Assembly: GCF_036588685.1 (NCBI RefSeq)
Contig: NC_086379.1
Span: 83,018,001-83,082,000, forward strand
Direction of reading: 5' to 3'
Length of the DNA: 64,000 nucleotides
From: Mytilus trossulus
Lineage: Eukaryota
Shown: piece by piece, positions 1,624-57,677 of the stretch
Position numbering within the stretch: the first letter of the stretch is position 1
Layout: the number at the start of each line of letters is the position of its first letter
The notes under the pieces: generated by a model
Seen by the model: the letters and a program-made list of their open reading frames with translations, nothing else
What the model was told of the DNA's origin: nothing
Databases searched by the model: none
Position numbers and translations under genes: made by a program

Positions 1624-1759
1624 NNNNNNNNNNNNNNNNNNNNNNNNNNNNNNNNNNNNNNNNNNNNNNNNNNNNNNNNNNNNNNNNNNNNNNNNNNNNN
1701 NNNNNNNNNNNNNNNNNNNNNNNNNNNNNNNNNNNNNNNNNNNNNNNNNNNNNNNNNNN
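1624..1759. other. Assembly gap (run of N)
   Basis: 136 N bases, preceded by an A-rich low-complexity tract. Confidence 0.99.
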
Positions 1760-3356: not shown

Positions 3357-5205
3357 GCCAACATCATGGGATATCTAAATCCAAACCACCCTGCTCGATA
3401 TTTCTTGCTCCTACGAATGACATGATATCAACAGACCGGAATTCTATTTGAATGATTGTATGAGTCACATCTAAACTTACGGGCTCGATAAACAACATCA
3501 ATATGAAAATTATGATGAAATACCTATTTGTAAAAAGTGGTTTATAGGAACAGTCAAAATTCTAAACAAATTATTTGAATTCATAATTAAAAGGATTTTT
3601 ACATTCTTTGTATCATTTTAAAGAAGCAAATGTCATTTTCATTGATAAGGCAAAAATAAAAAAAGTCAATTTTTACCAAAAAAAATCGAACTGCCGATTT
3701 GGTGAGTATGTTATGTGAATATTTCATATCTAAATTTTGTTTTACTATTTTTATGTTCATTTGGAGGTGAAGAACAGAATGTTGAACCGAGTGACCACGT
3801 TTAAATTAAGGATCGTTAATTGAAACTTAAAATTTAGTCATTTAACTTTTTTAAATGTCGGTTGTGCAACACAGTTCAGGAAAATAATAATGACAATTAT
3901 CTATGGTCACAGTTGCAGGTAACTTACTTCCTATTTAACATATTGATTTAATTTAGACTTTACCATTGTTAAATGTTTATAATAAGACTAAGGAATGGGT
4001 TCAAATTGCTAACCTTGAACGGATCAATGATATAACTAACAAGCAGTATAAATTCTATACCTATTCTTTGTAATACTTTAGTAATATCTTCAGTAATATC
4101 TATATGTCTTCATGTTAAGTTTTCAACTAACACGGTAAGGCTTTCCTTCAAACAAGAAATGTGTCTTATAATTTAAGTGTAAAATATTAACATTTAGTAA
4201 TTTAGTTAAAGTAGCTAACAATTTTGATAACTCTCGGTTGATTAACGGCTTTCCTTGTTTCACATAGTTTACACATGGCGTTGCACAAGTTCGTCATATT
4301 TTCTGCATAATTCATTGGTGGAGGGTTGAAGGAACCCATACACACGTATCTTGTTAATATAAAATAGTCAGCTATAAAAGGCCCCGAAATGTCAAATGTA
4401 AAACAATTCAAACGAGAAAACTAACGGCATAATTTAGGTTAAAAAAATGAACGAAAAACAAATATGTAACTCATCAACAAACGATACTGAAATACAGGCT
4501 TCTGACTTGGGACAGGCACATACATACAGAATTTTATAAGTTCACTAAATGCTAAGATGACTCCATATTCTGAATCCTCATCACTGGTTATCTTTTTTGC
4601 TTAGTTTGCATAAACTATAAAAGATAGATAGAGAGAACATGTAAGTTTAAAAAAATTAAATGTTCAGATATAATAGATTATACAAAAAATGTCACAATAT
4701 GGCCATAATTGGTAATTGATCCCTAATAGGAGTTATTAACCATGAAAGATGATTTTATTATATTTTTTTTGCTTATTTTGCTGTTACAGAAAATGAAATA
4801 AGATCTTCAAAAAGGTCAACATGGCAGTAATCGACTGTCTCTTTATAAGATTTATTGCCCTTGAATGAAACGTTTTGCTAATTTGCATAATTTTTCAATT
4901 ATCTCTAAAAGTTTTATTAATAAAGTAGAAACTTTAAACAGTAAACCATCAATGCAAATTCTATAAAAATACTCATAAAGAAAATTTACACATAAGCAAA
5001 CAAAACTGATTGCATTAAAGGTAAAACAAATATCCAATTTATACCAGGTGAGCCTCTTGTTTTATAGAAGGACTGAGTTGCGCTTAAATGAAAAATTATT
5101 TATCATTCATATGTATTAACCAATATAGTGAGTGAAACGAGAGAGAGAGAACACTGTTTGCGAGTAGAATTTCATTGAAATATACATTTTTTAGACAGCG
5201 GTGCT

Positions 5206-8200
5206 ATGATTCGGACCGTTGTTTGTTTTCTGATACTTTGCTTACACTGTGAAGGTAAGTCTGTAACATAAAGGTAAGTAGGATATATGTTATTCGCTTC
5301 TCAAAACAAATATGATTATTACTTTACATGCACAAATGTAATTGCCTTCTATAGACACAGAGGAGATTTGCCGAATTTAGATGTGGTCTTGCCCCACTAA
5401 GGATTGATACTCGGAGAAATGAACATATAGTTTTAGAAAGCAGAGTGTTTCATATATGTGGTTTTATTAACTTTAATTTTTTGTTTCATTAAGAATTCCT
5501 CTTTATGACGATTTACGTTGCTGAAACATTTAATTAAAATTTTGATACCTGATAACCAAACTTTATATTTTTATTCTCAGATGTAAAAATGATACGTGTG
5601 TGTACGAAAACTTGTTATTCAATGTTAAAAAGACCTCAAATTTTAGTACTTAATTTCATATTGTTTAATGTAATGTATCTTCTATGCATATTAACAGTAT
5701 CTTATAACTATGTATAGAAGGTTTTCATTTCATGTAGTATTGTTTTACAATTTATAAATACCGATTGTACTTGTTGACGATGAGAGTTTAATAGAATATT
5801 GAATTGAAATGCACAACCGTCTAGAAATAACTGAATATACTTTGCTCGAAATTAACAAACAATTAACTTACATATTAAAATTCAGTATTTTATTAGTGTC
5901 TCACCACTTGTTAAACATACAATACAATCATCACAATATATACATTGAATAAAACAGTATTTGTATGCCCCTTTATGGGCATTTTGTTTTCTGGACTGTG
6001 CGTCCGTCCGTCCGTCCGTTCGTTCGTCCGTCTGTCCCGCATCATGTTAAAGTTTTTGGTTAAGGTAGTTTTTGATGAAGGTGAATTCAACTTGAAACTT
6101 AGTACATATGATCCCTATGATGTTATCTTTCTAATTTTAATGCCAAATTAGAGAATCCACCCCTTTTCTCCCTTTTTCACGGTCCACTGAACATAGAAAA
6201 TTATAGTGCGAATGGAGCATCCGTGTACTGGGGACACATTCTTGTTATATATATTAATGTAAAAAAGTAAAATAACAAATATTACCGAAAATATCAATGT
6301 AATGACTTGATTCCTTTGACAGTTATTTCTAGTTACAAGAGAGTCTGCTTCTTTACGAACTGGTCACAATATCGGCCCGGTATTGGAAAATATACGGCGG
6401 ATAAAATTGATCCATTTTTATGTACCCATGTAATTTATGCATTTGGCAAAGTGTCCGGGAATACTATCCAGCCATATGAAGAGAATGACATCACACAATC
6501 CAGTAAGTTAGTAATGATTTTATCACTGTTATAACTAGTGCTGTAACTTGTATTGCTATTCAGAACAAGAAATGAAAATTAAAATATTTGAAAAAACGAA
6601 ATAGAACAATAGAAGTACGAACGATTGTGTCAAGGTTGTCAAGGTGGGAATCATGTGGTTGGTTCGTGTCAGTTGTGAAGATTTTTTTGATTTGTGTTTG
6701 AACATCACAGCTTCAATTGTTATTGGTTGATAGATATATCTAAACGTTCAGCGACTCTGTCACAAATTGACCTTCCTATGAAAGGTTTTCCTATCTGTTA
6801 TCATGACATTTTATTCAGACTGCGAGATGACCAGTATGTTCTTACTCCTATACATACTGCTTTCATTTTGGCGTAGTAAAGTTGTGATCACATTTAAAGT
6901 CTCTAGGTGAGGGAGATTACTTAAAATCGCCCAAAAGAAAATAAAGCCAAAAGAGAAAACTACAGACAACAAAACAACAAAACACCGAAAAAAGATACCA
7001 GGTGGACATTCAAACTCATAAATCGAAAATAAACTGACAAAGCAATGGCTAAAAAAAAAGACAAACAGAAAAATAATAGTACACAAGACACAACAAAGAA
7101 AACTAAAGAATAAGCAACACGAACCCCACCAAAAACTGGGGTGATCATATGTGCTCCGGAAGGTAAGTAGACCCTGCTCCACATGTGGTATACCCGTCGT
7201 GTTGCTCATGTTATTATACAAACCCGTTAAATAGTCAAATTAGGTAGGTCAAATTCGTGAGAAGGGAAGGGGTTGTAGTTACGACAATCATAAGGAACAT
7301 AGCCGATATCATCTGTGCATGAAACATAAGTTACATTTTGTACTTGATACATCTTTTTGAAGGTAAAGGTCAGTATGAAATGGCTAATGAACTAAAATTA
7401 ATAAATCCGGAATTAAAAGTTCTCTTAGCTATTGGCGGATGGAATCATGGAAGCGGACCATTTTCTACATTAGTTTCCAACCAGTCAAACATGGATGCAT
7501 TCTCAGAGAACTCATTGAATTATCTCAGAACACATGGTTTTGACGGCCTTGACATTGACTGGGAGTATCCTGGTAGCAGAGGTAGCCCTCCAAATGACAA
7601 ATATAGATTTACAACATTAGTTAAGGTGAGTAATGCTTTATTTTGATGGATCACATATAAGATTAAGGTGTTCATTCATACATTATATACTACTGTTACC
7701 TATATTTTTCACCCCTTATTTTATTGATTTTGTATATAAATTGTGTCATGTATAAAAGTTTTTCGTTAAATATATCTTTTGATTGAGTTAAGCCATTTCA
7801 TATTGAGTCTTTCTATGTTGTTATGTTACACTATTGTTTAGATTAGGATGAAGGTTGGTACCCATTAAAACATTTAAACCCGTTGCATTTGTTTGCACAT
7901 GACATATGTCAGAAATCTGATGTTCAGTAGTTTAATGTGATTCATACATGTTTCTTATTTCTCTTTTTTATATAGACTAGACCGTTGTATTTCGCGTTTA
8001 AATGGTTTTACGCTAGTCATTTTGGGGCCCTTATTATAGCGGCTTGCTGTTTGGTGTGAGCCAATAATCCGTGTTCAATATAGAAAAAAAGATGTGGTAT
8101 GATTGCCAACGAGACTACTTTCTACAAGAGACCAAATGACACAGACGAGAAACGAGAAAACTGACCGCCAAATGTAATATGTACAACAAATTAACTAAAA

Positions 8201-11200
8201 ACAAAAATGTAAACATAAACAAACGAAAATCACTGGCTGAATAACAAGCTCCTGACTTGAGACCGTACTATATGGCCTATGTAATGGTTTACTTTTACAA
8301 ATTTTGACTTGAATGGAGTGTTGTCTTGTTTCCACTCATACCACATCTTCTTATATCTAATTAATAATTCAAATGGACTAAACATCGTATATTAAAGGAT
8401 AGCTGTATAATACATCATGATTTTTTTGCAGACATTACGTTTAAAGTATGACAATGAAGAGTTGACATCCGGGAGGTCACAACTGTTATTAACAGCTGCT
8501 GTTTCAGCAGGCAGAGGAACAGTAGAATCTGCTTATGAAATCGACAAAATATCACTGTAAGTTAACAACTTAGTTATGTCTATTGTAGAACAAGGAGTAA
8601 AATAAAACATTATTTAAAATCCACTATAGTTGTAACCGTTAATATTTGCAATATCAAATATAATCTTTTTTTTTATATCACAATTTTTGTGTAAAATATT
8701 CTGACTAAGTAGTATCTGAAACTGTCTTTCCTTGACAAAATATATTAAAATGGGAATAAACTATCCAAGAAAGCACCGTATTTAAATTGCGTATAAATAT
8801 TTTACTACTTCAAATATAAAAATATACTCCTACGATTGTCATATATATTTTCATTTAACCGTAGTTCGCTATAAATTGCAATACGCATTGAGCAGACAAT
8901 ACTGAGTCATTGACAAATTTACACAAACAACAACTTTGTTTGGAAGTTGCATCATTTGCAATCATACCACATCTCCATAATTTTACAAAAAAATAGATTA
9001 AATAAGATGGCAGTTAATTTGTAAATCAATTGTTTCCACAAATAAATCTGTACCTATAATATACAGGGAATGAAACTTATAATCTCTTTATTGGCCTTAA
9101 TGTTTTCAAAGTATTGTCAAGTTTGGCTCTAAAACAGTATCTTTTTCAAAAGAGAAAAACGCGTCTGTTTAGAACAGTAATAACTATTTAGAAATAAGTT
9201 ATCATATAAACGTTTAAAAGATTTTTATGAATACAGTTATATAAATGTTTAATATTTATTTTCAGGTATTTGGATCTTATAAATTTAATGACATACGATT
9301 TTGTTGAAGATTATAACACAGTAACAAGCCACCACAGTCCATATAATGACTCAGCAATTGTTGACTTCAACGTTGTAAGTGTAGATACAAATTATCAGAA
9401 GATCCTTTTTCCAGGGGATGTTAACATTATGTTCTTAAATTGTACATATACACCACTCTCCCGTGTAAGACCCATGCAGAATGTTTTATCCCATGTTTTT
9501 GTATATGCCTGTCTAAAACCAGAATTTCAGTGTAACATTATATATTATTTTTGGATGTTCCTTTGATTTTAGTTTAGAGTTATTGATCTAAATAACGTCG
9601 TTGATTTTCTGTTATGAAGTGGTATTTGTACACTTTAATGTTGCAATTTAGTTTTTTTAGTAACATCGAAATGTTGATAACTTCTATATCCATGCAAACA
9701 TACACCTTCTATCACTTTTTACAAAAATGTACTTTATGCAGGATTATGCAGTTAAAATGTGGTTAGATGGAGGAGCACCGAAAGAAAAACTGATCATGGG
9801 GTTTCCTACATACGGAAGGTCTTTCACATTGAGTAATACCATGAACACAGGTTTAGGGGCGCCATCTATTGGTCGCGGTACAGCTGGACCTTATACAAGA
9901 GAGAGCAGTGTGTTGGCTTATTATGAGGTAAGATTTTGCATGCAGTTATACCAAACGTTACCGTAACTAACGAATCATGCTTATGATTGCCATTGGTTTG
10001 ACTATATTGATCATCACGTCTTAAAGTCTTGATCATTCTGTTTGGGTTTACGCTTTCCTCTCAAAGCTTAATCATCAAAAGTGCGTAATAGTGTTTTACG
10101 TTTACTATAGAACAGATAAAAGCACAAAAGAGTGGCAAACAGATGAGCATTAGCCTGAATCAGTTGAAATCTCAAGATTTTAGTGAAATGAAATTATTTC
10201 TCTACTGGAATATCAAAACCAAAATATACCATTTCGGACATTCCATTAAAAAAACACCTTCTACTATTATTAAAATTGAACCCTGAAGTTCACTATCAAA
10301 GTTATCTAAAGCAAATCACACCATCCTAAGTGGTAATTGAAAAAAACCCACATGAAAAGACATTATATTCAGAGAAGATAATGGAATTGAAAAAATGTCA
10401 TTTTTTTTTTATTTCTAAGATATGTTCCAAAATACAAACAGAGAACTGGACAGAGGTGTGGCTTGAAAAACAACAAGTACCATATGCATATCATGGAAAC
10501 CAGTGGGTTGGATTTGATAATCTTAGAAGTATCGAAATAAAGGTTAGAGTTTAGATTAAGATCATCAAAATTTAATATCTTTTACAATATCTAGGATTAG
10601 TGTTACGAAATGATATTCATGGATAACTAATATTACTATTGGAACATTCACTGTGATGTTTAATTCATGTTGGAAATCTTGGACTGCAGTCAGTATTTAT
10701 CTTTTTTATAATCTTTTCACTACAGTTGCTTTACTTTGTATTTTACTATCATATCAGGTCAAATTCTAACAATCTTAAACGGCATTAAACGCATATGTCT
10801 TGTCAAACAATCCGATCATATTTATTTTGTTTATCGTTTATTATTCAACGACTTTCTTATATAAAAAAGTATAAACACAAATACTTTGAAGGTAAATTTA
10901 AAAATTGAAAGTGATAAACCTGACAAAATCAAATGCTTTTCTCAACACATATGGAAATATTTCTTTGAAATAAAGGCAACAATAGTATTCAACTGTTCAA
11001 TCGACTAAGCGAAAACAAATCCAGGTCAAAAACCAAAACCGAGAGAAACACATCAACTATAAGCAGAAACAACTAAACAACTAAACACTGAACTGCAACA
11101 AAAACAAACGTCAATAATCACAACAACAGACTACGTTATAACCAGTGCCGTATTCCTGACTTGGTGCAGGACACATTAAAAAAATAATGGTGGATTGAAC

Positions 11201-14200
11201 CTGGTTTTATGGCTAGCCAAAACCTCCTGCTATTATGAAAATGTATAAAATGATATTGTATTAGATAAGGTATTGGTTATATGTATTTACAGGTAAACTA
11301 CATAATAGCAAACGATTTAGGAGGGGCTATGGTATGGGCTATTGATCTTGATGATTTTAATGGGATCTGTGGAAATGGTGCCTACCCATTGACTAGTAAA
11401 ATGAAAAATATGTTCAACGCTTCTTCTCATGATTATATTTCAACACCAATATCATCAACTGCAGGTATAACTACTCTTATAACATCTGATGACACTCTTA
11501 CAGAAACCATATATACATCTACAGAAAGATTTTCCAATGACATATTCTCAACTAAAGATACTACAACAACTCCAGTATCTAGTAAAACTGATAAACCAAC
11601 CAGTCATTCAACTCAAGATATTATCTTCACGAGAGAATCAACAGCTCATGATGTCCCTACTGATAGCCCTACTCAAATAAAAACTGATAAACCAACCAGT
11701 CATTCAACTCAAGATATTATCTTCACGAGAGAATCAACAGCTCATCATGTCCCTACTGATAGCCCTACTCAAATAAAAACTGATAAACCAACCAGTCATT
11801 CAACTCAAGATATTATCTTCACGAGAGAATCAACAGCTCATCATGTCCCTACTGATAGCCCTACTCAAATAAAAACTGAACGAACAACCAGCTATACATC
11901 AGATACAAATATGGAATCAACAAACAAAGCAACAAATCAATCCAGTGAAATGCAAAACACATCGACAGAGAGGCTGAATTCAACAGTCACAGAATTAACC
12001 ACAAAGTCAGAACAATTTGATTGGACAAATAAAATGTCGACAGAAGTATCGCCATCTACCACCGAATTGTTGACAACATTCAATAACTCTTTATTACCAA
12101 CAGTTATAGCTAACATTTCATCTGCTGAAACAACCGAATCAGTAACGACAGATTCAGAATCAACCTCGGTGACAGAAACAGACAATACAGATGTTACTGT
12201 ATCAAAAAGTTCCTCAACAACTTCTAAGTTAAAGTCACCAGATTCACAAGAATATTCTAGAGGTATATATACATTATTATGATAAAATAAGAAAGAAATT
12301 CTTTAAATCCATGTGTCTAAAAGAACTAAGGACATTTTAACCACGTGTGATTTATTTGTTTTGCAGTTTGATTTAGCAAAAAATACCGACACTACAGTGT
12401 TTCGTTGTTTTCCTCTTATAGTTGATGGGTTTTTCTCGGTTTTACTTTGTTAATTGAATTTATCTTTGTCTCAATCGATTTCTGACTTTTGAACAGCTGT
12501 ATACTACTGTTGTCATATTTTAAACACACACAAGGGAGTTATGTGATCATTTTAAAAAAAAATCCTGTTTACAAAACTTTGAATTTTTCGAAAAACTAAG
12601 GATTACCTTAGCCGTGTTTGGCACAACTTTTTGGAATTTTGAATCATAATGCTCTTCATCTTTGCACTTGTTTGGCTTTATAAATATTTTGATATGAGCG
12701 TCACTGATAAGTCTTATGAAGACAAAACGCTCGTCTGGCGTACTAAATTATAATCCTGGTACCTTTGATAACTATTTACACCACTGGGTCGATACCACTG
12801 CTGGTGGACGTCTCGTCCCCGAGGGTATCACCAGCCCAGTAGTCAACACTTCGGTGTTGACATGAATATCAATAACGTGGTCATTTTTATAAATTTCCTG
12901 TTTACAAAACTTTGAATTTTTCGAAAAACTAAGGATTTTCTTATCCCAGACACCTTAGCCGTATTTGGCTCAACATTTTGGAATTTTGGATCATAATGCT
13001 CTTTAACTTTGTACTTGTTTGGCTTTATAAAAATTTTAATATGAGCGTCACTGATGAGCCTTTTTTGAGGTTAACTTGGACGCTTTTTTGTATTTTTGTC
13101 ATACATTTTTGTTGTACACGTGTCTTTTTCCATCCGAATTAGAATGTAATTTTTAAACGTATCAAATGTGAATAAATAATTTGTTTGAATTTAGAATGGA
13201 GGGCAATAATGTCAATTTCAAATGACTTAAAAAAAATGTGGACACTGTCTGAGTTTTAACTTAAAGATTTATCTTATTTCAATCCTTTCGGAAGAAAGTT
13301 CGTACACGAAACAAAGGTTTTGTATACATGTCTATATCTTGAAAGTGGTTATTTGTTTATCTTTATTTGAAATTATTTGATTAATTCACGAGAACATTTA
13401 ACATTTATGTTTATAATGATCTTCGACAAGATCTTTTTTCTGAATCTCTTAAAATTGATGAGTATTTTAATAGTTTTACAGATTGTCAGAAAATGATATT
13501 ATATTTTTATTTCGGAATCAAGACAATATAAGATTATTTGCCAAAACTTGTAATTATATTCTGAAAAATTGAAAACAACACGTTTAAAAATTTCTTGCGT
13601 CCGAAGCGCTTTTCTGGATTTACCTTCATCAGGAACGCCCAAAGCCAAACATTTGAAATCCGAAGATGGATAAGTACCGAAAACGTTGAAGAGCTATATG
13701 TAAAAAATACCTAAAATAAATAGCAAAATTCATCTTAAGCCAACTTTGCCTGAGGGAGTTGAAACCTAAGTTTCTTAATAATTTCAAAATTTATAAACGG
13801 ACATTTTTAGTAAATAAAATTTAAAAGGAAATGGGGAATGTGTCAAAAGTAAAAAAACAAAAATACTGAACTCCGAGGAAAATTCAAAAAGGAAAGTCCT
13901 AAATCTAATGGCAAATTCAAAAGTTCAAACACATCAAACGAATGGATAACAACTGTCATATTCCTGACATGGTACAGGTATTTTCTTGTGTAGAAAATGG
14001 TGGATGTTCAAAGCGACAACAACCCGACCATAGAGCAGACAACAATTAAAGTTTGATAAATCATGTCAGCACCGAAGTACGGACTACTAAGTTGATGATA
14101 GCACCTGGGACTGATGACCAGCAGAGGTATCGACACAGTGATGTAAAAAAAAATGAAAACAACACGTTTAATAATTTCTTGCGTCCGAAGACGCCGAGAA

Positions 14201-14631
14201 GTTTTATATTGTAAATAATAGTAGAATAATTATGTTGTATACTTTTACTCTTCATATTTCATATTCATAATGTACATACATTTTGTTTTAGTTGTAATCG
14301 TCTCTCTTAATATGTGCAGATTGGTTTATTTATACAAAATGTATCTTTTATAGATTTATTGTGTTATGTTATACATAAGGCGAGACGTAAATAAAATATT
14401 GAATTGATTTAACAAACTTAAAAAACATTGTATTTTTGATTTTTTTTTTAAATTTCAGATTTAGTGAAAGATTTGGACAACAAATATATTATTTTTGGTT
14501 TGGCAGGACTGCTGTTTTTATCTATGCTATGTAATATTGGTCAATGTTTGCTTTCGCGAAAAGAAGACGGTGACGAGAACTGTTCTTGTATCCGAAAACA
14601 CAAACAGACTTTACATCTGACTCAGTTATGA
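5206..14631 (+). CDS. GH18 chitinase (CHIA/CHIT1-like) with signal peptide, mucin-like Ser/Thr stalk, transmembrane helix and short cytoplasmic tail; 9 coding exons, ~725 aa
   Basis: Exons 5206-5254, 6323-6502, 7363-7625, 8432-8556, 9266-9374, 9742-9927, 10420-10542, 11293-12262, 14459-14631; all GT-AG and phase-compatible. Motifs: [28 protein letters not shown], intact catalytic [34 protein letters not shown]. The last exon encodes [23 protein letters not shown] then ...HLTQL*. The terminal exon is less certain than the catalytic exons. Confidence 0.9.
5960..6246. mobile_element. Short non-autonomous Helentron/HINE-like element
   Basis: T-rich start, small hairpin atgccc-ctttat-gggcat, (GTCC/GTTC)n microsatellite, ending cacattcttgtt; same architecture as the 35826 and 55421 elements. 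Confidence 0.5.
6960..7315 (-). mobile_element. Penelope-like element 3' region fragment
   Basis: Reverse-strand homology to the sequence at ~15840-16165, which follows the KFYGRHHELV Penelope-type coding remnant. Confidence 0.55.
11584..11871 (+). repeat. Coding tandem repeat, 3 x 96 bp (32 aa [32 protein letters not shown])
   Basis: Units start at 11584, 11680 and 11776; nearly identical, differing by one D/H codon. Confidence 0.97.
12560..13058 (+). mobile_element. Hammerhead-bearing ~347-nt repeat (retrozyme-like family A), ~1.5 tandem monomers with degenerate cores
   Basis: gagcgtcactgat recurs at 12696 and 13043 (period 347). The first core reads CTGATAA...AAAA (mutated); the second is truncated after CTGATGAG. 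Confidence 0.75.
13597..13638 (-). ncRNA. Minimal type I hammerhead ribozyme, family B, intact core
   Basis: Reverse complement reads gcgttc CTGATGA a-gg-taaat-cc-a GAAA agcgct TC ggacgc: stem I gcgttc/ggacgc, palindromic stem III, UUC cleavage triplet. Lies in a repeat spanning ~13565-14190. Confidence 0.7.
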
Positions 14632-14833
14632 CCAAAGATATCCATACGATGTATTTGATAAGGGATTTTTCGTTTTGAATTTTCCTCGGAGTTTCTTATT
14701 TTTGTGATTTTCTTTTTCAATATCATTTGGATCAATTCTATACCTATTCTTCATTAAACTATAATTGATTTACAGCTGCACTTTGTGAGATTTTATGTTT
14801 AGTTTAAAGAGGCAGTGGACATATTGAATGTTG

Positions 14834-14839
14834 AATAAA
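14834..14839 (+). promoter_or_regulatory. Candidate polyadenylation signal of chitinase 1
   Basis: AATAAA about 200 nt after the stop at 14631. Confidence 0.5.
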
Positions 14840-14847
14840 CGGAAAAT

Positions 14848-15097
14848 AGAAGGAACACGTCTTCGTTAGTCTTCCCAAAGAAGGAATACGTCTTCGTTAG
14901 TCTTCCCATAGAAGGAACACGTCTTCGTTAGTCTTCCCATAGAAGGAATACGTCTTCGTTAGTCTTCCCATAGAAGGAACACGTATTCGTTAGTCTTCCC
15001 ATAGAAGGAATACGTCTTCGTTAGTCTTCGCATAGAAGGAACACGTCTTCGTTAGTCTTCCCATAGAAGGAACACGTCTTCGTTAGTCTTCCCATAG
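14848..15097. repeat. Minisatellite, 8 x 31 bp (agaaggaaYacgtcttcgttagtcttcccat)
   Basis: Units at 14848, 14879, 14910, 14941, 14972, 15003, 15034 and 15065, contiguous with no spacers. Confidence 0.97.
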
Positions 15098-16166: not shown

Positions 16167-16979
16167 ACTGACGTTCAAATCTCGTAACTAGATTATTGAG
16201 AAAAAAATAGAAAATAAAACCCAAAAACGGAGGAAATTACATTAAATTTAAAGAGAGCGATACCTTGTGTCTCAACAGGGTAACCGTCTTTTGCCATACA
16301 TGCACCATCCACAATTTGAATTAACACTCAGTCAAAATTTTACAATCGGTAATAGGAAAAATAACAGTAGTGTAACATCAAAGGTAAACACCAGGTTGAT
16401 TCAATTATTTAGAGTCGTTTATCGCTAACCATCAAGCCAACACATACTGCAAATCACATAACCAAACACTCCACACTATTTCTAACTTATAATTCAAAAT
16501 ATCGTAATTTTCAATGACATGAAGTTGAAACTATATCTGAAGAAGAACCAAAAATCCCGACATATTTTCCTGACGTTGTGGAGTATCTGTGGTCATCCCC
16601 ATATTTGAAAGGTTTTCGATGTAGCACCTGTGGTCGTCCCCATATTTGTAAGGTGTTCTATGTAGCATTGTTATACTTTCTGTAAGAATGTCCTTCTATA
16701 GTTTAATTACTCTATTTTTGCATAGTTTTTAAAAGAAATATATAGCGTTAACTGCACTATGCGAAAATAGTATGTCTTGCTGTTGCAATAGACTATTGAT
16801 TTTAACGTCAATCATTGTTTGATTTCACGAGAGAAGGTGGAGCTTAGTCGGATTGATAGACAAGTGGGCTGGGCTTATTAGCCTGATCATATGTGCGCTT
16901 AAAATAACGATGTTTTAAACCACTAATTAAAGTCGCTTAATGACTATACTGTCGTCTGCAAAAAAACAAAACAAACAAG

Positions 16980-19900
16980 ATGTCGCGGTTTGGTCAAGAC
17001 GACCCTACAACATTTAGAAAAGAGAACTTTAAGTCCAAGAAAACTGGTCAACACACACATTTTGCTGTTAAAGTTTTGTCAGATTTCAACATCAACTTAC
17101 TCGAAGATAATAGAGATTATAATTAAAGGAAGGGAAAATAATAAGATTTTGGAACATCAAAACCCACTACAAAAAGGTTTTACGGCAAAATCCACTCCAT
17201 TGCTTTGTGAACTGTTCATTGAGGAATTTGAAAGAGAAAATAAAGATCTCAAGTTACCAACCTATGTTGCATTACTGGATGGAAAATCTGCTTTTGATGT
17301 TGTAGTTCATAAAAACCTGATACGACGTGTTTTTCAAATTGGATTCTAAAAGCAATCTATTTTACTGATCAGCAATTTATATGAAAATGCAACATCCTGT
17401 GTAAAATGGGGCAATACAATGTCAAATCGATTGTTTAATATTGAACAAGGTGTAAGGCAGGGTTGAGCCATTAGTGCTGACCTCTAAAAAGTTTATATCA
17501 ACCCCTACTACAAATTCTCAGCAACTCTGGACTGGGAGCCAAAATTGGAAATATAAATTGTTGTGCGCCAACTTGTGCTGACGATATTGCCTTGATATCC
17601 AACAATCCTTTTGACTCCAAAATATGATAAATTTAGCAGTTGATTTCAGCCAAAGAGAGGGATATCTACTACAGCCTCAAAAAAGCGTAGTCTTGCCAAT
17701 CAAAACATGTAATAAAATGCTAGATGTTGAACAAGGTTTTTGGAAACTTACAAATATAGATATGCCCATTGTCCAAGACTCCTCTCATATTGGAATAAAA
17801 AAATCTCAAAAAGATTCTACTAATGCAACCATCACTGAAAATATAAAAAAGGCCAGAAGATCTATGTACAGTCTTATGGGTGCTGGATTACATGGGGAAA
17901 ATGGATTAGACCCGGAAACAGTAGTCTCCTTATTTAGAACATACATCTAGCCAGTTTTGACCTACGGCCTAGAAGTCTTGATACCAACAGGCAAAAATTT
18001 AGATCTTATACAACAGCAACATAAAAGGTGGATTAAACAGATTTTATCTCTCAAACTAAATGTGGCTGACCCGGCTGTCTATATGTTATCAGGTTTGCTC
18101 CCACTTGAAGCAGAGATCCATATTAAAATTATTACACTATTTGGGAATATAACCAGATCTGAAAGATCGTCCTTAGGATGGAGAATAGCTGAATGACAAC
18201 TTCAAATTAAAACCTACTCAAGCAATAGCTGGTTTATTGATCTAAAAAAGATATGTGGCAAATATGACATCATAGAGATAGAACAGTATCTTGATAAGCC
18301 ATAAACAAAAATTGAATGGAAGAGATTTATAACCAAAAAGATTCACAAGTACTGGGAGGGTGACATAAAGACCAAAATGAAGGGGTACTCAACTCTAAAA
18401 TATCTTAATTGTGAATATGACATTGGCAGAATTCATCCTTTACTTAAAACAACAAGTGCAAATATAACGGAGATCAAGAAACTGTCAATCTGCACTAAAT
18501 TTGTTACGGGAACCTACATACTACAATCTAATAAAGCGGAGTATTCAAACTATGCAACAAATCCGATGTGTAGACTCTGTAATAAAGCTGACGAAACCAT
18601 TGAACATTTTATCTTATTGTGTGAAACAACTTCACAAATAAGGTCATCCCTTATCGTCAAAATTCTACACGAAGGCAGTCTGGTCTTAGCAAGAGAGAGC
18701 CTGCAAACTCCTATTGATTTAATAACATTAATCATTAATCCTTATCATTACCTAACAAAGAAGATGTGCAAGGATGTTGAAGATAGAGTCGGTAATCACT
18801 TGGTACCGCTATGTCGCCAACTGTTATATACACTTCATTCCAAGCGCTATGATGTGTTGACAAAAACTGATACAAAAGCAAACAGAAAATGAAGAACTGT
18901 GAAATCATTTTAGCTGTAATATATACATGTCGGGGTACACATGGATCTCCCTCTTTTAGTAGTTTTAAAGTCTATTAAATTTTTTACGGATTGCACTTAT
19001 AAACTTTCCTATTTTTTTCTTTTTAACAGTGTTAAATTTTTTTTTTATATATAATTGTACTTATTGTCTCTATTGTAACTTATTTTTAACTTATTTTAAA
19101 ATTAGTTTTTACCATTTTAATTGCATTTGTAATATTTTTAACACTGTCGTGGCGTAAACATGTATGTTAAATAAGATAACCTTGTGTATGACTATTGTGA
19201 ACTGTGAATTTACCTGTGTACATATATTGGTGGAGGAATTTCATTGACGGAACTACTTTCCTCTATAAGGAGGTGTGCCTTGATTGGCAGAAATTCGTTT
19301 ACAGATTACAGATTACAGATTGTTGAAAGAGGTATGGAAATTGACATTTTGGAAGCCACAAAAGATGAAATCGCAAATTTATTGCAAGATTTTTATGCCA
19401 ACATCCGAAATAAAAGTCAAGAATATTACAAGAAAAATACTCTTCTAGCCATACGACAGAGCATAAATAGATATCTGAAGGAGAACGACAGTTTTTTTGA
19501 CATCATAACCGACCCCGAATTTACCCGAGCAAACGACAACTTTACTTCCCTACTCAGGAAAACGAGAGAAGAGGGAAAAGGAACTGTCACCCACCATGAG
19601 GCTATCTCACTAGAGGATTTGAGAATGCTTTATGAACACCCACTAGTTTTTAACACGTCAACTCCTCAGGGCCTCCTAAATAAAACTATATTTGAGACAA
19701 TCTTATATTCTGCAGAAGGGGTCAAGAAAATCTCTCACAATTGAAGGTTGATGAAATTAAAGTTGACTCGGATCAAAAAGGGTAGATGTATGTCCGTAAA
19801 CTTACAACAGAACTAACAAAAAACCACCAAGGTACTACAAATGAGCCAGAGAGTTCAGGGGGAATGATGTATGCTACTGGCACAGATAGATGTCCTGTTA

Positions 19901-21931
19901 AGTCTGTTGTTAAATATCTAAAGAAACACAATATTGCAAGCAATAGATTATTCTTGCATCCAAAGAATTCATTCAGTGAACAAGATGATATGTGGTTCAG
20001 AAATGAACCAATTGGACAGAACACCATGAAAGTGTTTATGAAGAATTTGTCGAAGTCCGCAAAATTATCTAGAGAATACACCAACCACTGTATCCGGTCA
20101 ACATGCATAAGACTATCAGTGGACACAGAAATGAGGCATCTTTATCAAGCTATTGTTATGATACTTCAGGTAAATGCTATACACAAATATTTAATATTCA
20201 TTGTGCAATTGCTAAAATTTTAATACAGTTATCTAAGGAATGACTGTAATATTTTTTCTATCTATGAAGAAATAACATAAAAATGTGGTATATTACAGTC
20301 ATTTCTTATAATTTAATTCTAAATTTCATTTCAAACCGTAGAAAACCATGTAAAAAGGTTGATGACGTCACGGTGACATGACTATATTATGTCTATGGGC
20401 TGAAAACAAAATAACGTCAGCCAATCAGAAGACACGTTCCATCGGAAATATCTATATATCTTATGCAGTACATCATTTGTACATATAATAACAAAAATAT
20501 ACATTGAATTACACCAATATTGTAAGAATATTTCTGCTTTTAATATCATAATTGAGTTTATCCAAATTTTTTATGTAAAATCTCAAAAAGGTATTGGGTC
20601 TTATTTATGTGTGAAATGACTGAGTACAATATTAATATATTCTTTATTCTAATGACTTTACTTGTACATTTCTTTATTTCATTGTGCATGATTATAAATT
20701 AATTTTATTGTCTGTCAATCATTTTCTGAACTCATATATAAAATGCTTTCATTGTTTTTTTATAAATACATTTCAGATAAACAGAAACAGAGTATGTCTG
20801 ATGCATTAAGTAAATGTACCTATGGAACATTACAACAGACAGAAAGTAGGAGTGTAACTAGTAAGTATAATCATGTAAACTATCAAATTAAACAAAATAA
20901 TCAAAGAAATGCAAAGAAAAAATAACCTAGGAGAAATGCATGTATTTATCGTCTTGTCGGTACCATGAAATATAGCACACTACATTGTTGCATTGACTCC
21001 CCTCAAATATTATAGCACAATAAAATCACATCGATAATTGTATTCTAATATTTGCCACTAAACTTGGGTTGTACTGTTTAAAGATACTGATAAGACAACT
21101 GTTCATATATGGCTCCTAAGTCCTTTTGTACATATAGTCTATATAATATATAAATAGTTTTCCTTACATGCAAGATAGTGTAAAAACAAACTTAATTCTT
21201 TTTATTACAGTTAGCTTGTCCCAGGAAAAGACTGTTTCTACCTTCACGTCGGATGAGAATGAACAGCCAATACCTCTACCAGTAATAGAGACTGTTTCTG
21301 CTGTTAGAAATAGTAAGAGACAAGGTATGTTTTCTTTTTGTATTCAGGTACTATTGAAATAGTATAAACTATTCAACATATATTTTGGGTCAAAACATGA
21401 AATAAATGACAAAAGGTTTGTCACATAGTCTTCAACAATGAGATCTTCCTTAAAGTCACTGTCCTACATGTCCCGTTACATATAATGGAGTTCATGAACA
21501 AAATGGCATTCAGGTGAATTAATTGCATATTTAACACATGTAAATACATTTATGTCTCAACATTCTTCAATACATTTTAAAAATGAAAGTACGCTTTTAC
21601 TTGTTTTTGATAGTACAAATGATGTACTGCTATATGGCCAGGAACTATTTGTGCAACTTTGTTATGTTCAACTAGAATAATTTGTTACCTAATAGTATCG
21701 GTACTTTGTTCACACTCAAAAGCTGATTTTATTTAAATTATTTTAGTTGAAACTGCACCATATGATCCAGATATCATTGACTTTTTGGGACTACCTGATG
21801 ATGTTTTGGTGGACTATTGCCAATCAGTCGAGAATTCTGACCACCAAATTAGTGCCCCAAAGCAAATGAAGATGATGCCATTGATGAGTATTTCAAATTG
21901 TACTGTTAATATCAACTATTACAATAATTGA
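16980..21931 (+). pseudogene. Tyrosine recombinase pseudogene (Crypton / DUF3504-like)
   Basis: Segments 16980-17088 (MSRFGQ...AVKVLSDF), 19320-20169 (YYKKNTLLAIRQSINRYL, FCRRGQENL, TKNHQG, RCPV, YTNHCIRST, SGHRNEASLSSY), 20777-20845, 21211-21324 and 21747-21931 (...ISNCTVNINYYNN*). The catalytic R, K, HxxR, H and Y are present. Disabled by a frameshift near 19700, TAG at 19783, a deletion/frameshift near 20110 and the LINE insertion. Confidence 0.8.
17089..19319 (+). mobile_element. 5'-truncated, decayed non-LTR retrotransposon (RT plus C-terminal zinc finger; RTE-X/CR1/L2-type, clade not resolved)
   Basis: RT motifs QKGF, LLDGKSAFDVV, GVRQG, APTCADDI and zinc finger CRLC...ETIEHFILLC. Several in-frame stops (e.g. 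17347, 17948, 18194). 3' tail (TTACAGA)3 at 19299-19319. Confidence 0.9.
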
Positions 21932-23550: not shown

Positions 23551-26500
23551 TTACCCAACAACTACAGGTAGTGCAGTCGATACAAAATCAAGTCCTGGTT
23601 TACCACTGAAAACATCCTTCATTGTTTTCATTAAAGGGTTTTTGCCTTGGCCACACACACCGTGGAAATCATCTAAATCTAATGCCCACATCATACCTCC
23701 TCCTAAACCATTGTCCATAATGTATTTTGTCTGTTAGGGAAAAAAAAACCATTATAAAGTTTAAATTTTAAGTACTCCTTGTTAAACGACTATACTGGAT
23801 AAAGTCTTCTAGAATATAACTGTCAGAATTTGATTAAAGTTATTGAATTGTCAGTTTCTGTTCTAAGTAAAACAGTCTTAATTTGTTGAATTTATTAAAG
23901 ACGTCTTTACACTAAATCCATTGAACGTTGGATGTGCACTGATTGCTTTCCTCTTCTTAGTTAAAAAAAACCATGGATATGGGGAATGTGTCAAAGAGAC
24001 ACCAACCCGACAAAAGAATAAAAACATGATTACATAATTACTTTATGCGTTGTTATTTGCTTTGAACTCAATTTAAGTAACTGAGATAACACAGCGTATG
24101 TGCTAAGTGTATTTCGTATTTTGTATCTATATTTTTTCCAGATTAAGGGAGGTTTTGGTGCCTGTAAACGTTTTTCACCACATTCAGTCTGCTACTGTAA
24201 TTCAGAAGTTGTCGTTTGTTGGTGTATATCATATTTGTTTTTAGCTGATTGTTTTATCAGATCGTTAGCTTTCTTATTTGAATTGCAATACATTTGCCAT
24301 TTCGGGGCCTTTTATAACTGGCTATACTATGCGGTTTCGGGTTTATGCATCGTTGAAGGTCGTACGATGACCTATATTTTCTAATTTCTACGTCATTTGG
24401 TATCTGATGGAGATTGATCTCATTGGCAATCATACAAATGTTTGTACATGTATATAAAACATATTCAACTGTCTAATTGATTGTAATACTGTACACATGA
24501 AAGTCACTGACAGATGTGAATGATGACTATGACCAAGTTTGGTTCAAATTTGCCAAATAGTTTCAGAGACGATTATCGTTAATGTAAAGGGAGTGTTCAA
24601 AAATGTATTTCAGACCTTCTGAGCCTTATTATCTTATATCAATTTCAATATTTAATAGAAAGTTTATAATTATTGTTGGAATATAAAAGTTATCTTTTCC
24701 TGACATAAGTACTTACTTTAATGGCAATACTTTTCGGAGTTTCGAATGAGATCCACTGGTTATCATGATAGGCGAATGGTACTTTCTGTTCATCTAGCCA
24801 AATCTCTGTCCAATTCTGATACATAATGTCATAACAGATCTAGTTGTCAAAGAATGATAATAAATAATTATTGATTGCCTTTGAATGTTGATTAGATTGA
24901 AACAATATCTGAAGTCATAATAAATTATCCACAGAATACTTTATCACCCTAGGGCATTGATCCTTTATGTTGTAAGTAATACATTAAGAATCAATCGCAC
25001 ATTAGACCATACAAACCAATTCTCCCTACTGTAAAGATACTACAAAGATACATAGGCAAAACCGTGACACAACAGGCATATAGACTATAGATATAAGGAT
25101 TAGCGTTATCAGTTCATTACATTGACCTCAACAGGAATATGGGAAGAAAAAAGGTTAGAATTCATATGTAAATAAACTCACCATAGAAACCAGGATTGAA
25201 ATTTTGCATTTGCGCCAGACTCGCATTTAAAAAAAGTAAGAAAAAACAACAAACAAAGTACGAAGTTTAAGAGCATTTCGGACAAAAAATTCCTAAACAT
25301 TTTGCAAAATACATTTTAGGTTATATATCACTGAGGTTAAAAAGTCTTAGTAGTTCAAAATGTCAAGTGTTATTAACTGTTAATTTAGAATTATAACCAT
25401 ATCGAGGATAATTCATGTCAACACAGAGGTGCTGACTACTGGGCTGGTGATAAACCACCATAAATTAAGAATAATTTACATGAAACCCGAGATAAAATAC
25501 ATGACAATGACAATGACAAAAAAATTATATCTTTTATCTCTTTATCATATCAAACTTACCTCATAGTATGACAAGAACCCCTTTTCTTTAGTGGTTGAAC
25601 CCGCAGTACCCTGACCGGAAGTAGGAGCACCCAATCCTGTCTCAGATGTATTATTCAATATGAAAGACCTTCCATATGATGCCATACCCATTATAAGTTT
25701 CTCTTTTGGAGTGCCGCCATTCAACCACATTTTAACAGCAAAATCCTTAAAAAAACCAGTGTCATCCTTAATACGTTGTAAAATCAGGTATAGAGTTTTA
25801 AATAAATGGAGCAATGAAAACACTACAAACAATAGTAAAACACATGCCGTATATTAAGTAAACCAAAAATCTGATTTATGAATAAACAATACAATATAAA
25901 CAATATGACAGACAGCAAACCATGTCTTCCACTCCAGGCTTCTGGTTTGAGAGAAGCAAACAAACAATTGGCAGTTAAAAAATGCATCATGCTTTTTAGA
26001 CTAAATATCAAATAGTATTTGAGAAAAGCATGAACTTGCGCTTTCTAAACTGTATTGCAATATATTTTGTAATGTTGAACTGCTGATAATAATATTAATG
26101 TAAGGGCCAAAAAGCCGATATTCAATTATTTAACTATAGTGTCAAACGGATAACTTTTAATAATACGTTTAATAAAAGGTCCAAGAAGTAAACTTGCATC
26201 GTATATATATTTTCGACCTCCATAGACACAATTATCATATAAATTCGATTATAATATCCGCTTTGTTATCCGGTTTACCAATAAACATGACATAACTATT
26301 ATCATGGTTGAGAGTCAGAGTTGTATTTCTTTAACTTCTAAAACATTATTGATTAATTAGGTAAACACTGTTTTGTACATGTTTGTATCAAGTCAGGAGT
26401 ATAAATAAAGGCAACAGTGGTATACCGCTGTTCAAAAATCACAAATCGATTGAGAGGAAATAAATCCGGGCTACAAACTTAAACCGAGTGAAACATATCA

Positions 26501-29500
26501 ACTATTAGAGGGAAAACACACTCAAGTGCAACAGGAATTAGGAGTATGACAGTTGTTTTCCATTCGTTTGATGTGTGTGAGCTTTTGATTTTGCCATTTG
26601 ATAAGGAATTTTCGGTTTTGAATTTTCGTTTCAGTTCATTATTCTACTTTGTACTATTTATTATTACTTTGTGTACTATTTATTATTACTTTGTACTATT
26701 TATTATTACTTTATGTACTATTTATTATTAATTTGTACTATTTATTATTACTTTGTACTTTGTACTATTTATTATTACTTTGTACTATTTATTATTACTT
26801 TGAACTATTTATTATTACTTTGTACTATTTATTATTACTTACAACATTATTAGCCTCGTATGGAGTTAGTGATTTGTAAAGTGGAGTATTACATTGTGTA
26901 CCATTATAAAAATCACTATTCATATCAAACGCCATTAGATTTATAAAGTCCAAATTCCTGAAGAAGAAAAAAATTGATAGGGCAATTGTTACGTGTGAAA
27001 TTTAATTTTATTCAGGAGATACACATTTGTGATCTGTATGTTGAAAAAGATAACAATAAAATCCATTATGACACAAAAGAAATTTCTTAAATATTTGCAA
27101 ACTTTGAAATTCTGTTGATTTATATTGATCTTCGAAGAAAACCTTCTGTTACCCTTTTCCCGATATTTTGCAAACAAAATATGTGTTAACTAAAAACGTC
27201 TTCAGTCTATAAATAAAACCATTACTTCAGGTATATCCATAAAATATAATTTACCAATAATATATAATAGATAATATTGTCTTAAAATTGAAAAAAATTA
27301 TATAAAAAATTTAATTCAACAGTAAAAGACATGAATCTTCATCATAAATAATTAAAACAAATTAAAACTTTACTCTGCTATTTTGCTGATTTCGTACGCA
27401 CTCTCTATTTCTGGTTTACTGGCTGCCACAGCTGCTGTTAGCAACAGACGAGAACTACCAGTTCTCAAATCTTCATTGTCATATTTTGTTCGTAATGTCT
27501 GTCAAAAAATATTTTCTTTCATTAATAGAGATTGGTACAAGATTAAGCTACTCACATTTACTTATTTGAAAGTCTACTATCAATTTATTTTGAAATAAAG
27601 AAACATGTTTAGTTAAATTAAAAAAAAAAACCCAATGAATCCTTTTTTTCATTCTTCAAATTGAACTTTTCTACTTGTAAATATTGAACAGAAGATGCAT
27701 TTTCTTTGTGCTTTATTTATTATTTGTACCTTAACAAGGGAAGTGAATCTCTTTTTGTCCTCAGGAGGGCTTCCTCTATTGGCAGGATATTCCCAATCTA
27801 AGTCAAGACCATCAAAACCGTTCTGTCTAAGGAATTTGATTGAATTTGTAGCAAATGCATCCATGTTTGATTGGTTAGCCACGATTCTTGTAAATGGTTT
27901 AGTCCCATGATTCCACCCTCCAACAGCTAACAGTAGTTTTAAGTCAGGATTTTTACTTCTTACATCATGCATCATATCAAACTGACCTTGTCCTGAAATG
28001 GATATGTATGAATAATCACCGTTTTCAACTTAGTGTGTGTTCTAAAAGTTTTCAAGACAAACTTTTAAAAACAAATGAATAAGAAAAGGTTAATTGTTTG
28101 ATTGACTGTAAGATAACGACTGGTTTTGATAAACAATAGATATAGGAAGATGTGGTGTGAGTGCCAATGAGACAACTCTCCATCCAAGTAACAATTTAAG
28201 AAGTAAACCATTATAGGTTAAAGTACGGCCTTCAACACGGAGCCTTGGCTCACACCGAACAACAAGCTATAAAGAGCCCCAAAATTACTAGTGTAAAACC
28301 ATTCAAACGGGAAAACCAACGGTCTAATCTATATAAACAAAACGAGAAACGAGAAACACGTATATATTACATAAACAAACGACAACTACTGTAATCAGAT
28401 TCCTGACTTAGGACAGGTGCAAACATTTGCAGCGGGATTAAACGTTTTAATGGATCCAAACCTTCTCCCTTTTTCTGCTTCTGAAACAATAGCATAACAT
28501 CACAACATAGAAAAACACGTTCTTTTAATATAGAAAAAACCCGACAACATCTAATTCTATAAAAGAAGTAATGGACATACCAAACGTTTTACCAAACAAA
28601 ACTTTTTTTATCCAATATATATAAATATATGCAATGCAATAAGTTATATATATATAAATGTTCTGAGAACACATGTTCGTAATCAAGTACTTAATTCGTT
28701 AACTGATGGAATTACCCCATATACGAATGAATTTTGCCATATGCACTATTGACTCTACCTTATAAACTTACCCCATACACTGATATCATTCCATTCATAT
28801 GGTTTGATGTAATTTGATTCCAACTTGGCAAAGGCATAAATCACATGCGTGCATAGAAACGGATCTACATTATTGGCCTTGTACTTTCCGATTCTACTAC
28901 GGTATTGGGCCCAGTTTGTAAAATAACAAACCCTTTTATAACTTGCAGCGGCTGAAAAAGTATTTATGTGATTAATAACAGCAAATTGTAGAGTAAATCT
29001 ATGAAATATAAAGTACCAAAAACACATGTCCATATATGGATATCTAGCCATTAGATATCAGAAAGCTGTAATCTGTATTATAATAGCCATGAAAGAGAAG
29101 CTAAATGACAAACAACAACTCCGAGGAAAATAAAAAGCACCTTTAATATCAAATGGCAATATCAAAAGCTCAAACACATCAATCGAGTGGAAAACTACAT
29201 TCATAACCCTGACTTCGTAATGTAGAACATGGTTGATTAAACCTGGTTTTGTAGATTGCCTGACTTCTAAATTGTATAACAGTCGCATACAATCTCATTA
29301 ATTGACAAGAATGTATGAACAAAACAAACAGACATCAAATGTAAAATAGTCAAAGTTAGTTACAGAAGTCATCATATTATTTTTCAATCTTAATCACTAT
29401 AAAAATTAAACAATTACTAAAAAGTTTGTAAAGTTCTGTTGTTAGAACAGCTAAGCAAACTTTTACCCTCCTCTTTGTTTTTGTAAAATGCAAAATTGTT

Positions 29501-30178
29501 ATTTGTGATAATGCTAAAGTAGTTATCAAAATTACCAGGATAATAGTAGGATTTAACACATTTTGGTTAATTGTCTCATTGCTTTTCGAGTATTTAATTT
29601 TGGATTTCAATAAGTATTGCGTCTCTGTTGGGCAATGTGTAAACGAAACGCCACGTCTTAGGTACCTGATTAAAAGCTAATGTATATCTTTTGTTTACTC
29701 TTATTCTATTAAAGAAATGGATTCTAGTGAGCGTTCAGAACAAGCGCACCACCAATATTGATTTCAAAATAAGTGAGATTCTTTTATTTGCTCTATATTA
29801 AAAGTATTCTTTTCAATGTTATTATTGTGGTGCGTAGAAATCTCATAAAAGGTACTAATCTTTTGATTTAAATGAAAACACCAGACACGAACTCTTATAT
29901 GTCTCAGCAAACAAAAAACACATGTTTACAGAATAATTTCCACTTACCCAACGTCTGCACACGAAAATTATTTTTTAAGAATATGGTTTTTGTTTCAAAA
30001 ACTTGACTTTTAAGCGAAAGGGACCGTTTGCCATGATAACTTACCGCCTAACTTAAAGGGTAGGGATAATTACTTTTAAGCAACAATCATATAAATATTA
30101 AAGAGGATTTGATGGATATAATTAGTGTGTCTTACCTTCAGATAAAAGAAGAATCAGAACAATATAGCTGAACATCAT
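23551..30178 (-). CDS. GH18 chitinase paralog, secreted, catalytic domain only; 8 coding exons, ~404 aa
   Basis: Minus-strand exons 30178-30136, 28951-28772, 27992-27730, 27498-27374, 26957-26843, 25745-25560, 24839-24717 and 23730-23551; all GT-AG, with internal exon sizes 180/263/125/186/123 identical to chitinase 1. Signal peptide MMFSYIVLILLLSE; motifs KRVCYFTNWAQYR, EWND, LAVGGWN, FDGLDLDWEYPA, GGGMMWALDLDDF; ends PVVVG*. Confidence 0.92.
26645..26840. repeat. AT-rich minisatellite, ~20-22 bp unit tttgtactatttattattac, about 9 copies
   Basis: Visible directly; it abuts the exon 5 splice donor of the minus-strand chitinase. Confidence 0.95.
28138..28520. repeat. High-copy dispersed repeat (SINE-like, family unassigned)
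   Basis: The block gaagatgtgg..tgccaatgagacaactc...ggccttcaacacggagccttggctcacaccgaac recurs at ~7850-8350, 49975-50170 and 61480-61660, with a related family at 4365-4530, 48880-49190 and 62430-63000. Confidence 0.75.

Positions 30179-57620: not shown

Positions 57621-57677
<57 letters not shown>

Follow-up and report, generated by a model that had tools for sequence, protein, structure and literature searches.

How does a mussel chitinase gene end, and does its last exon hold the enzyme at a membrane? The question is raised by gene A, which lies at 5206-14631 (+) of a 64,000-nucleotide stretch of the Mytilus trossulus genome (RefSeq assembly GCF_036588685.1, contig NC_086379.1, positions 83,018,001 to 83,082,000 of the forward strand; the whole stretch is called the window, and position 1 is its first letter). 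A preliminary description of this locus had proposed a receptor-like, membrane-anchored GH18 chitinase with a terminal exon missing from the open reading frame (ORF) track. Our analysis points to gene A probably being a type I membrane ectoenzyme, with its catalytic domain outside on an O-glycosylated spacer, that cuts soluble or amorphous chitin at an epithelial surface, likely a digestive one.

Exon structure of gene A and the join to its last exon

Nine exons, joined from the window sequence across eight introns that are all GT-AG, give an open frame of 725 amino acids (aa), and the resulting protein is identical at 725 of 725 residues to XP_063446433.1 (P0001, RefSeq, M. trossulus). The terminal exon as query likewise retrieves the 725-aa RefSeq protein at 100%. 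Both the terminal exon and the full model are already annotated in RefSeq. The exon is indeed missing from the track of ORFs with a start codon, but it is present in the stop-to-stop list and in RefSeq. The novelty that the preliminary description implied was therefore too high, the more so as an anchored GH18 enzyme with a Thr-rich spacer has been published for oysters. The features of gene A are as follows.

5206..5254 (+): coding exon 1, with the ATG and most of a predicted signal peptide (aa 1-16; Kyte-Doolittle hydropathy KD19 1.95 at aa 1-19); donor G/gtaagt; agrees with P0001
6323..6502 (+): exon 2, start of GH18, with W30 (W31 of acidic mammalian chitinase, AMCase) and E70 at AMCase W71
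7363..7625 (+): exon 3, GH18 core (PF00704, E 1.2e-21), with W103 (AMCase W99) and the catalytic D140-x-D142-x-E144 (7551-7565)
8432..8556 (+): exon 4, GH18
9266..9374 (+): exon 5, GH18; M214, Y216 and D217 kept, Y222 at AMCase W218, N212 at AMCase H208, shortened loop
9742..9927 (+): exon 6, GH18; R268 at AMCase H269
10420..10542 (+): exon 7, GH18
11293..12262 (+): exon 8, end of GH18 (W360), then a Ser/Thr stalk (aa ~389-668) from 11422; terminates at a phase-1 donor
11584..11879 (+): 96-bp (32-aa) tandem repeat within the stalk, 3.1 copies, 99% matches
12263..14458 (+): intron 8, 2196 nt, GT..AG, rich in dispersed repeats
14459..14631 (+): coding exon 9, juxtamembrane segment, predicted transmembrane helix aa 678-699 (14485-14550), 26-aa tail (14551-14628) ending T-Q-L, stop
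14632..14839 (+): 3′ untranslated region, spanned by spliced contigs, with a candidate poly(A) signal (AATAAA) at 14834

The join that matters most is that of exon 8 to exon 9. The donor of intron 8 (AG/gtatat at 12262, phase 1) joins in frame to the acceptor tttcag/AT at 14458/14459 and yields exactly the 57 residues that had been quoted for it. Of 340 acceptor-like sites in the AT-rich window, 7, the real one included, open an ORF that reaches at least 45 aa and contains an equally hydrophobic segment (KD >=1.9), and the sequence by itself therefore made the terminal exon a good guess, not a proof. Reads across 12262/14459 had been proposed as the check, and the junction (mapped 12260->14457, 'GT..AG (cut +2)') is present in contigs of all four runs examined, from 4 studies and 3 organisms; these are 4 of 24 listed sequencing runs, whose run type, RNA, is a guess only. 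The shorter side of the bridging contigs measures 255 and 231 letters in two runs, and 28 and 21 in the other two. Taken together, RefSeq identity and spliced contigs settle the terminal join, and the remaining seven junctions of gene A rest on RefSeq identity and homology, because run contigs were compared over 11885-14840 only.

At the flanks of the gene, an acceptor at ~5194, just ahead of the ATG, would imply an upstream exon. In a M. galloprovincialis record (VDI83849.1, P0010) the gene A first exon (5194-5253) is joined to a first exon like that of gene B, the paralogue described below (window 30178-30137), and this record probably reflects either a chimeric gene model or a haplotype with another arrangement. 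Further upstream lies an assembly gap of 136 N (window 1624-1759), and a 31-bp tandem repeat of 8.1 copies (14846-15097) begins just past the candidate poly(A) signal.

Catalytic domain of gene A

With respect to the enzyme itself, a Pfam scan of the gene A protein returned PF00704 alone, over aa 23-365 (profile 2-317/317, E 2.1e-92), with neither CBM14 (PF01607) nor a signalling domain. The closest solved structure is mouse AMCase (8fg5, E 9.4e-123), and chitotriosidase matches at 2e-114. In the alignment to 8fg5 the GH18 motif DxxDxDxE is complete (D137/D140/D142/E144), with AMCase D136, D138 and E140 corresponding to D140, D142 and E144. AMCase Y141, M210, Y212, D213, W31, W99 and W360 are kept as well, Y212, D213 and W360 being supporting residues that correspond to Y216, D217 and W360 of gene A. 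The intact DxDxE domain that had been described is thus confirmed over its full length, and the motif is intact in every gene A record examined. An inactive chi-lectin of the CHI3L1 or OVGP1 type was rejected on account of this motif, although RefSeq names orthologues 'chitinase-3-like protein 1'.

Relative to AMCase, gene A carries the substitutions W71->E, W218->Y, H208->N (N212) and H269->R (R268), and the loop after Y216-D217 is shorter. The W71 position is Gln in the gene A orthologues of M. californianus and M. coruscus. PMC11182645 assigns AMCase W31, W360, W99 and W218 to subsites -3, -1, +1 and +2, and ties R145/H208/H269 to pH specificity. From these residues we infer that the enzyme is active, holds long chains less tightly and lacks a strongly acid optimum. 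Soluble or amorphous chitin and oligomers would probably be preferred over crystalline fibres, since CBM14 is lacking and W71->E and W218->Y are substituted, and the pH optimum is expected to be unlike that of the acid AMCase because N212 and R268 replace H208 and H269.

Gene A resembles AMCase (CHIA) and CHIT1 in that these are its nearest solved structures and share its catalytic triad and the stacking residues W31/W99/W360. Those enzymes, however, are secreted and usually end in CBM14, whereas gene A has a stalk, a helix and a tail in its place; the residues at W71, W218, H208 and H269 also differ, and vertebrate rows group apart in the tree described below. Judged by these features, gene A is not CHIA or CHIT1 proper, and the RefSeq name 'acidic mammalian chitinase-like' expresses similarity only. 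A Ser/Thr mucin-like region of variable length also follows GH18 in OVGP1 (oviductin), according to PMC6904773; OVGP1 is secreted and its catalytic centre is substituted, whereas in gene A DxDxE is retained and an anchor is predicted.

Stalk, helix and tail

The N-terminus of gene A is hydrophobic and signal-like and aligns with the AMCase signal region. At the other end of the domain, the stalk comprises ~286 aa with 40% Ser+Thr, in keeping with the ~280-aa Ser/Thr stalk described before, and includes the 32-aa unit (3.1 copies), a repeat not present in seven other aligned records. The spliced mRNA does encode the hydrophobic helix that had been proposed. Its KD19 is 1.97 in the M. trossulus window allele, the lowest value, and 2.4-2.9 in orthologues, helix and topology being predicted by Kyte-Doolittle hydropathy only. 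A predicted helix is found in 11 of the 14 gene A records long enough to judge, from M. trossulus, M. edulis, M. galloprovincialis and M. californianus. The three without a complete helix are a M. coruscus record that stops within it, M. edulis P0021, which ends early, and M. galloprovincialis P0009, which reads through the donor. Splice evidence, orthologues and hydropathy together support the proposal of a type I membrane chitinase on a Ser/Thr stalk, with a predicted topology.

M. trossulus and M. californianus are identical at 90% of GH18 positions (331/369), 50% of stalk positions (103/206), 59% of the helix and 54% of the tail (14/26), and stalk length ranges over 230-286 aa across orthologues. 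Because GH18 is so much better conserved than a stalk of variable length, gene A has the appearance of a conserved enzyme on a free spacer. The tail appears to be under no strong constraint, its identity being barely above that of the stalk; its length, a Cys-Ser-Cys and the end pattern nonetheless persist across orthologues. The earlier term 'Cys-rich tail' was an overstatement, as the tail has two Cys (C710, C712) and two more (C693, C698) stand at the helix end, with C693 being Val in M. edulis and M. galloprovincialis.

As a single query, the terminal exon returned 6 proteins among 19 candidates, all from Mytilus, which is weak evidence of absence elsewhere, and a terminal-exon HMM had 0 matches among 1.84 billion representatives, the query's own kin included, and is hence uninformative. 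An AlphaFold2 model from an 8-sequence alignment had a mean pLDDT of 27, and its helix at 669-704 was not used as evidence. Fungal-type glycosylphosphatidylinositol (GPI)-anchored chitinases have a hydrophobic segment at the very C-terminus and no cytoplasmic tail; a GPI anchor was rejected for gene A because its helix is followed by a polar tail of 26 aa whose length is conserved.

In terms of what the tail might do, a class I PDZ ligand is a free C-terminal [ST]-x-[VLI]. The end [ST]-x-L (TQL, TKL or SHL) occurs in 9 of 11 helix-bearing gene A records, P0005 and P0006 shifting into another frame, while 2 of 210 other, non-clade GH18 proteins end in [ST]-x-[VLI]. The pattern suggested earlier for the T-x-L end therefore holds across species even though the exact letters vary and conservation over the full tail is unremarkable, and this gives modest support to a putative class I PDZ ligand. 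A stronger claim would make gene A a receptor or co-receptor: its domain would recognise chitin or chitin oligomers and pass a signal on through PDZ scaffolds or through another membrane protein acting as partner, and hydrolysis would come second. An [ST]-x-L end held while adjoining residues vary, and so rare in GH18 proteins outside the clade, fits such a role, as do the PDZ-type ends of two of five anchored subfamilies (P about 0.01, post hoc) and a Ser-x-x-x-Asn pattern in the helix that could mediate pairing; language-model neighbours of aa 640-725 include neurexin- and syndecan-type tails (scores 0.80-0.81), a lead only. The catalytic residues, however, are intact in all gene A records examined, a PDZ ligand is equally compatible with plain apical retention, and a tail of 26 aa, conserved like the stalk, has no Tyr motif by pattern check and adds no signalling domain. 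We consider a receptor role for gene A distinctly improbable, and the 'receptor-like' and sensing elements of the preliminary description are unsupported for this gene.

The anchor might also be transient. In this alternative gene A is the membrane precursor of a shed or secreted mucin-like chitinase, staged at the membrane and released to mucus, crystalline style or shell matrix by near-membrane cleavage or by read-through at 12262. Read-through past this donor in the window stops after 6 codons and would give a soluble stalked enzyme, and M. galloprovincialis VDI35461.1 (P0009), the sole such annotation, reads through the exon-8 donor and has no helix. For paralogue C, RefSeq lists isoforms that lack the helix (P0236, P0238, P0262), and PMC4457423 cites chitinase activity in the M. 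edulis crystalline style. On the other side, neither AATAAA nor ATTAAA occurs within 440 nt past the donor, tail length and final residues are kept across species, and contig depth, though a poor measure, falls from 7-40 in the final bin of exon 8 to 0-1.6 just within the intron. This alternative is unlikely in our judgement.

We thus return to the tethered ectoenzyme. Its N-terminal peptide would direct it into the secretory pathway and helix 678-699 would stop transfer, leaving the enzyme outside and the tail inside. O-glycosylation would stiffen the stalk and, by the rule of thumb for mucins, raise the enzyme some tens of nanometres off the membrane, where the GH18 domain would cleave chitin by the usual substrate-assisted mechanism. 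The tail would be a handle for retention or sorting, through possible Cys palmitoylation and possible class I PDZ binding, and not a signalling domain.

Precedent for this plan comes from oysters. According to PMC4457423, Ca-Chit of Crassostrea angulata (KJ438173; 2015) has GH18, a threonine-rich region and a membrane anchor, and an earlier C. gigas enzyme, Cg-Chit (Badariotti 2007, PMID 17056114), is credited with a transmembrane domain, as cited in PMC4457423 and PMC1945033. Gene A is like Ca-Chit a bivalve GH18 protein with an intact active centre, a Thr-rich spacer and a predicted C-terminal membrane anchor. Ca-Chit differs in having two GH18 domains in 1095 aa, whereas gene A has one (a single Pfam stretch) in 725 aa and a 26-aa tail ending [ST]-x-L. 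The oyster GH18 domains among the tree rows fall outside the mussel clade, Ca-Chit itself not being among those rows.

By analogy with such enzymes, the gut or digestive gland is somewhat favoured as the tissue of the ectoenzyme; mantle or shell matrix is clearly less likely, and gill or haemocyte slightly less likely again. PMC4457423 places Ca-Chit mRNA in digestive lumens, rising on feeding, and PMC5549309 lists among the 25 most expressed Mytilisepta digestive-gland genes a 'chitotriosidase' that is not known to be gene A. Several points weigh against the digestive ectoenzyme. Its digestive role is an analogy, drawn from a protein with two GH18 domains that was outside the tree rows. GH18 genes are expressed in Mytilus mantle too (PMC6359903), chitinase annotations appear among shell-repair genes (PMC8194122), and PMC9024128 connects oyster Cg-Chit with granulocytes. 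Ser and Asn occur within the helix, the stretch of tail beside the membrane is not strongly basic (RK, then EDGDE), and 2 of 14 gene A records have no helix (P0009 by donor read-through, P0021 by early end). Finally, in three of four runs there is low depth (0.8-1.6) just inside intron 8, and for this reason a soluble gene A isoform may exist.

Mussel paralogues and other features of the window

Gene A belongs to a group of mussel paralogues, subfamilies A-F. In a quick maximum-likelihood tree of 34 first GH18 domains, a reselected set that leaves most of the 285 collected proteins outside its rows, the 16 rows of these subfamilies form one clade (SH-aLRT 100), separate from the enzymes of oysters, scallops, gastropods and vertebrates and from further Mytilus enzymes. 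An earlier quick tree of 72 domains had placed long second domains beside the mussel clade, and hence the tree was redone with first domains. Clade members bearing species names are all Mytilus, with subfamily D outside this count. CBM14 is found in none of the clade records examined (0/24 by pattern, 0/7 by Pfam).

One member is gene B, of secreted type and convergent with gene A in the same window. Its intron phases equal those of gene A introns 1-7, it is 58.5% identical to gene A, and it has no stalk, helix or CBM14. Because gene B is nested among anchored paralogues, its position suggests that it lost its anchor. DxDxE is intact in gene B, and Phe replaces the conserved Tyr (AMCase Y212; LMAFD) in 12/12 records covering the site. 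Given the role of this Tyr in GH18 enzymes, gene B activity may be reduced.

A helix is predicted in five of the six subfamilies (A, C, D, E and F, with none in B), followed by tails of 26 to about 188 aa. Paralogues C-F, exemplified by XP_052068084.1, CAG2250400.1, XP_071131795.1 and ENA record P0158, have spacers of about 25-135 aa where measured and tails of 42-188 aa. Their helix regions match one another (hhalign 95-99.8%), whereas the gene A helix region matches C-F at 0.2-4.9%, like an unrelated helix control (0.3-4.0%). Either anchoring arose twice in the clade or the gene A exon has diverged beyond recognition; the alignments are too short and shallow to tell these two possibilities apart. 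The accessions of the paralogues run nearly consecutively and their longest contig is shared, which suggests one tandem cluster. In the open-access literature we found no paper on gene A or on the Mytilus anchored-chitinase clade, and GH18 contigs in the supplement of PMC6359903 may include gene A.

The long-tailed paralogues outside the window are more receptor-like candidates. Subfamily C (P0156, P0157, P0167, P0235, P0237, P0263-P0269) is an anchored GH18 group with a tail of ~185 aa that has a Pro-rich stretch and a Tyr motif and that in three named species ends T-N-V, in agreement with the class I PDZ pattern; helix-less isoforms are likewise listed in RefSeq. On this evidence subfamily C is a better receptor candidate than gene A. 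More broadly, the mussels may possess a tandem family of membrane chitinases that gained its anchor at least twice and whose tails, PDZ-type in gene A and Pro-rich, Tyr-motif and PDZ-type in paralogues (up to about 185 aa), link the cleavage of chitin to sorting or signalling, so that they act as active chitin receptors. We regard this as quite improbable; if true, enzymatically active chitin receptors would be a candidate for how molluscs sense chitin.

In subfamilies E and F (P0159, P0161, P0163, P0255, P0260, P0261, P0268, P0284), G-Y-(D/E)-V-hydrophobic stands a few residues past the helix, and a second Tyr motif is present; we take these motifs to resemble signals for lysosomal or endocytic sorting. 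Digestion in bivalve digestive cells is intracellular, and gene A could accordingly be imagined as an endosomal or lysosomal membrane chitinase that acts inside vacuoles and not at the surface, given the resemblance of the G-Y-x-x-hydrophobic motifs in its E and F paralogues to lysosomal signals. In the gene A tail itself, however, a Tyr motif is absent, and the residues of AMCase tied to acid pH, H208 and H269, are missing, so that we consider this location very unlikely. An anchored chitinase also occurs, apparently independently, in the amphipod Trinorchestia (P0045, 1264 aa), a multi-domain GH18 protein that ends in a Thr-rich stretch, a hydrophobic segment and a 9-aa tail.

Gene A alone matters little, since its sequence is already annotated and oysters provide a precedent for its plan. 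It shows that a predicted membrane enzyme lies concealed behind automatic names ('acidic mammalian chitinase-like', 'chitinase-3-like'). The mussel clade, with no chitin-binding module and with predicted anchors of which two are apparently unrelated, is more useful than any single gene. Its members offer a natural series, running from no anchor through a short tail to a long one, for asking what tethering does in chitin digestion, shell-matrix remodelling and pathogen sensing in a farmed bivalve.

The remaining features of the window are these.

16927-18892 (+): broken LINE-type element, RVT_1 and zf-RVT fragments (Pfam)
19208-20223, perhaps to about 21900 (+): ORFs with QRICH1 and DUF3504 domains (Pfam)
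23551..30178 (-): gene B, paralogue convergent with gene A, made of GH18 alone (404 aa in 8 exons); identical to XP_063446436.1 (P0275)
about 35370-39075 (+): small C-type lectin gene, with Lectin_C (E 1.2e-08) in ORF 38782-39075 and a signal-like exon near 35450
about 54915-63742 (+): exons with motifs that we take to be typical of a carbohydrate sulfotransferase

Pfam thus places LINE and DUF3504-type element fragments between genes A and B. The ORFs at 19208-20223 are likely a tyrosine-recombinase element between the chitinase genes, presumably Crypton-like, to which exon-like pieces near 21211 and 21750 may belong. The + strand candidate exon near 21211 had been entertained as an alternative last exon of gene A and was set aside, as it lies just past the DUF3504/QRICH1 element and is not hydrophobic. 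For the exons at about 54915-63742, no Pfam sulfotransferase match was obtained on the four single exons scanned, and the assignment as a carbohydrate sulfotransferase is presumed from the motifs.

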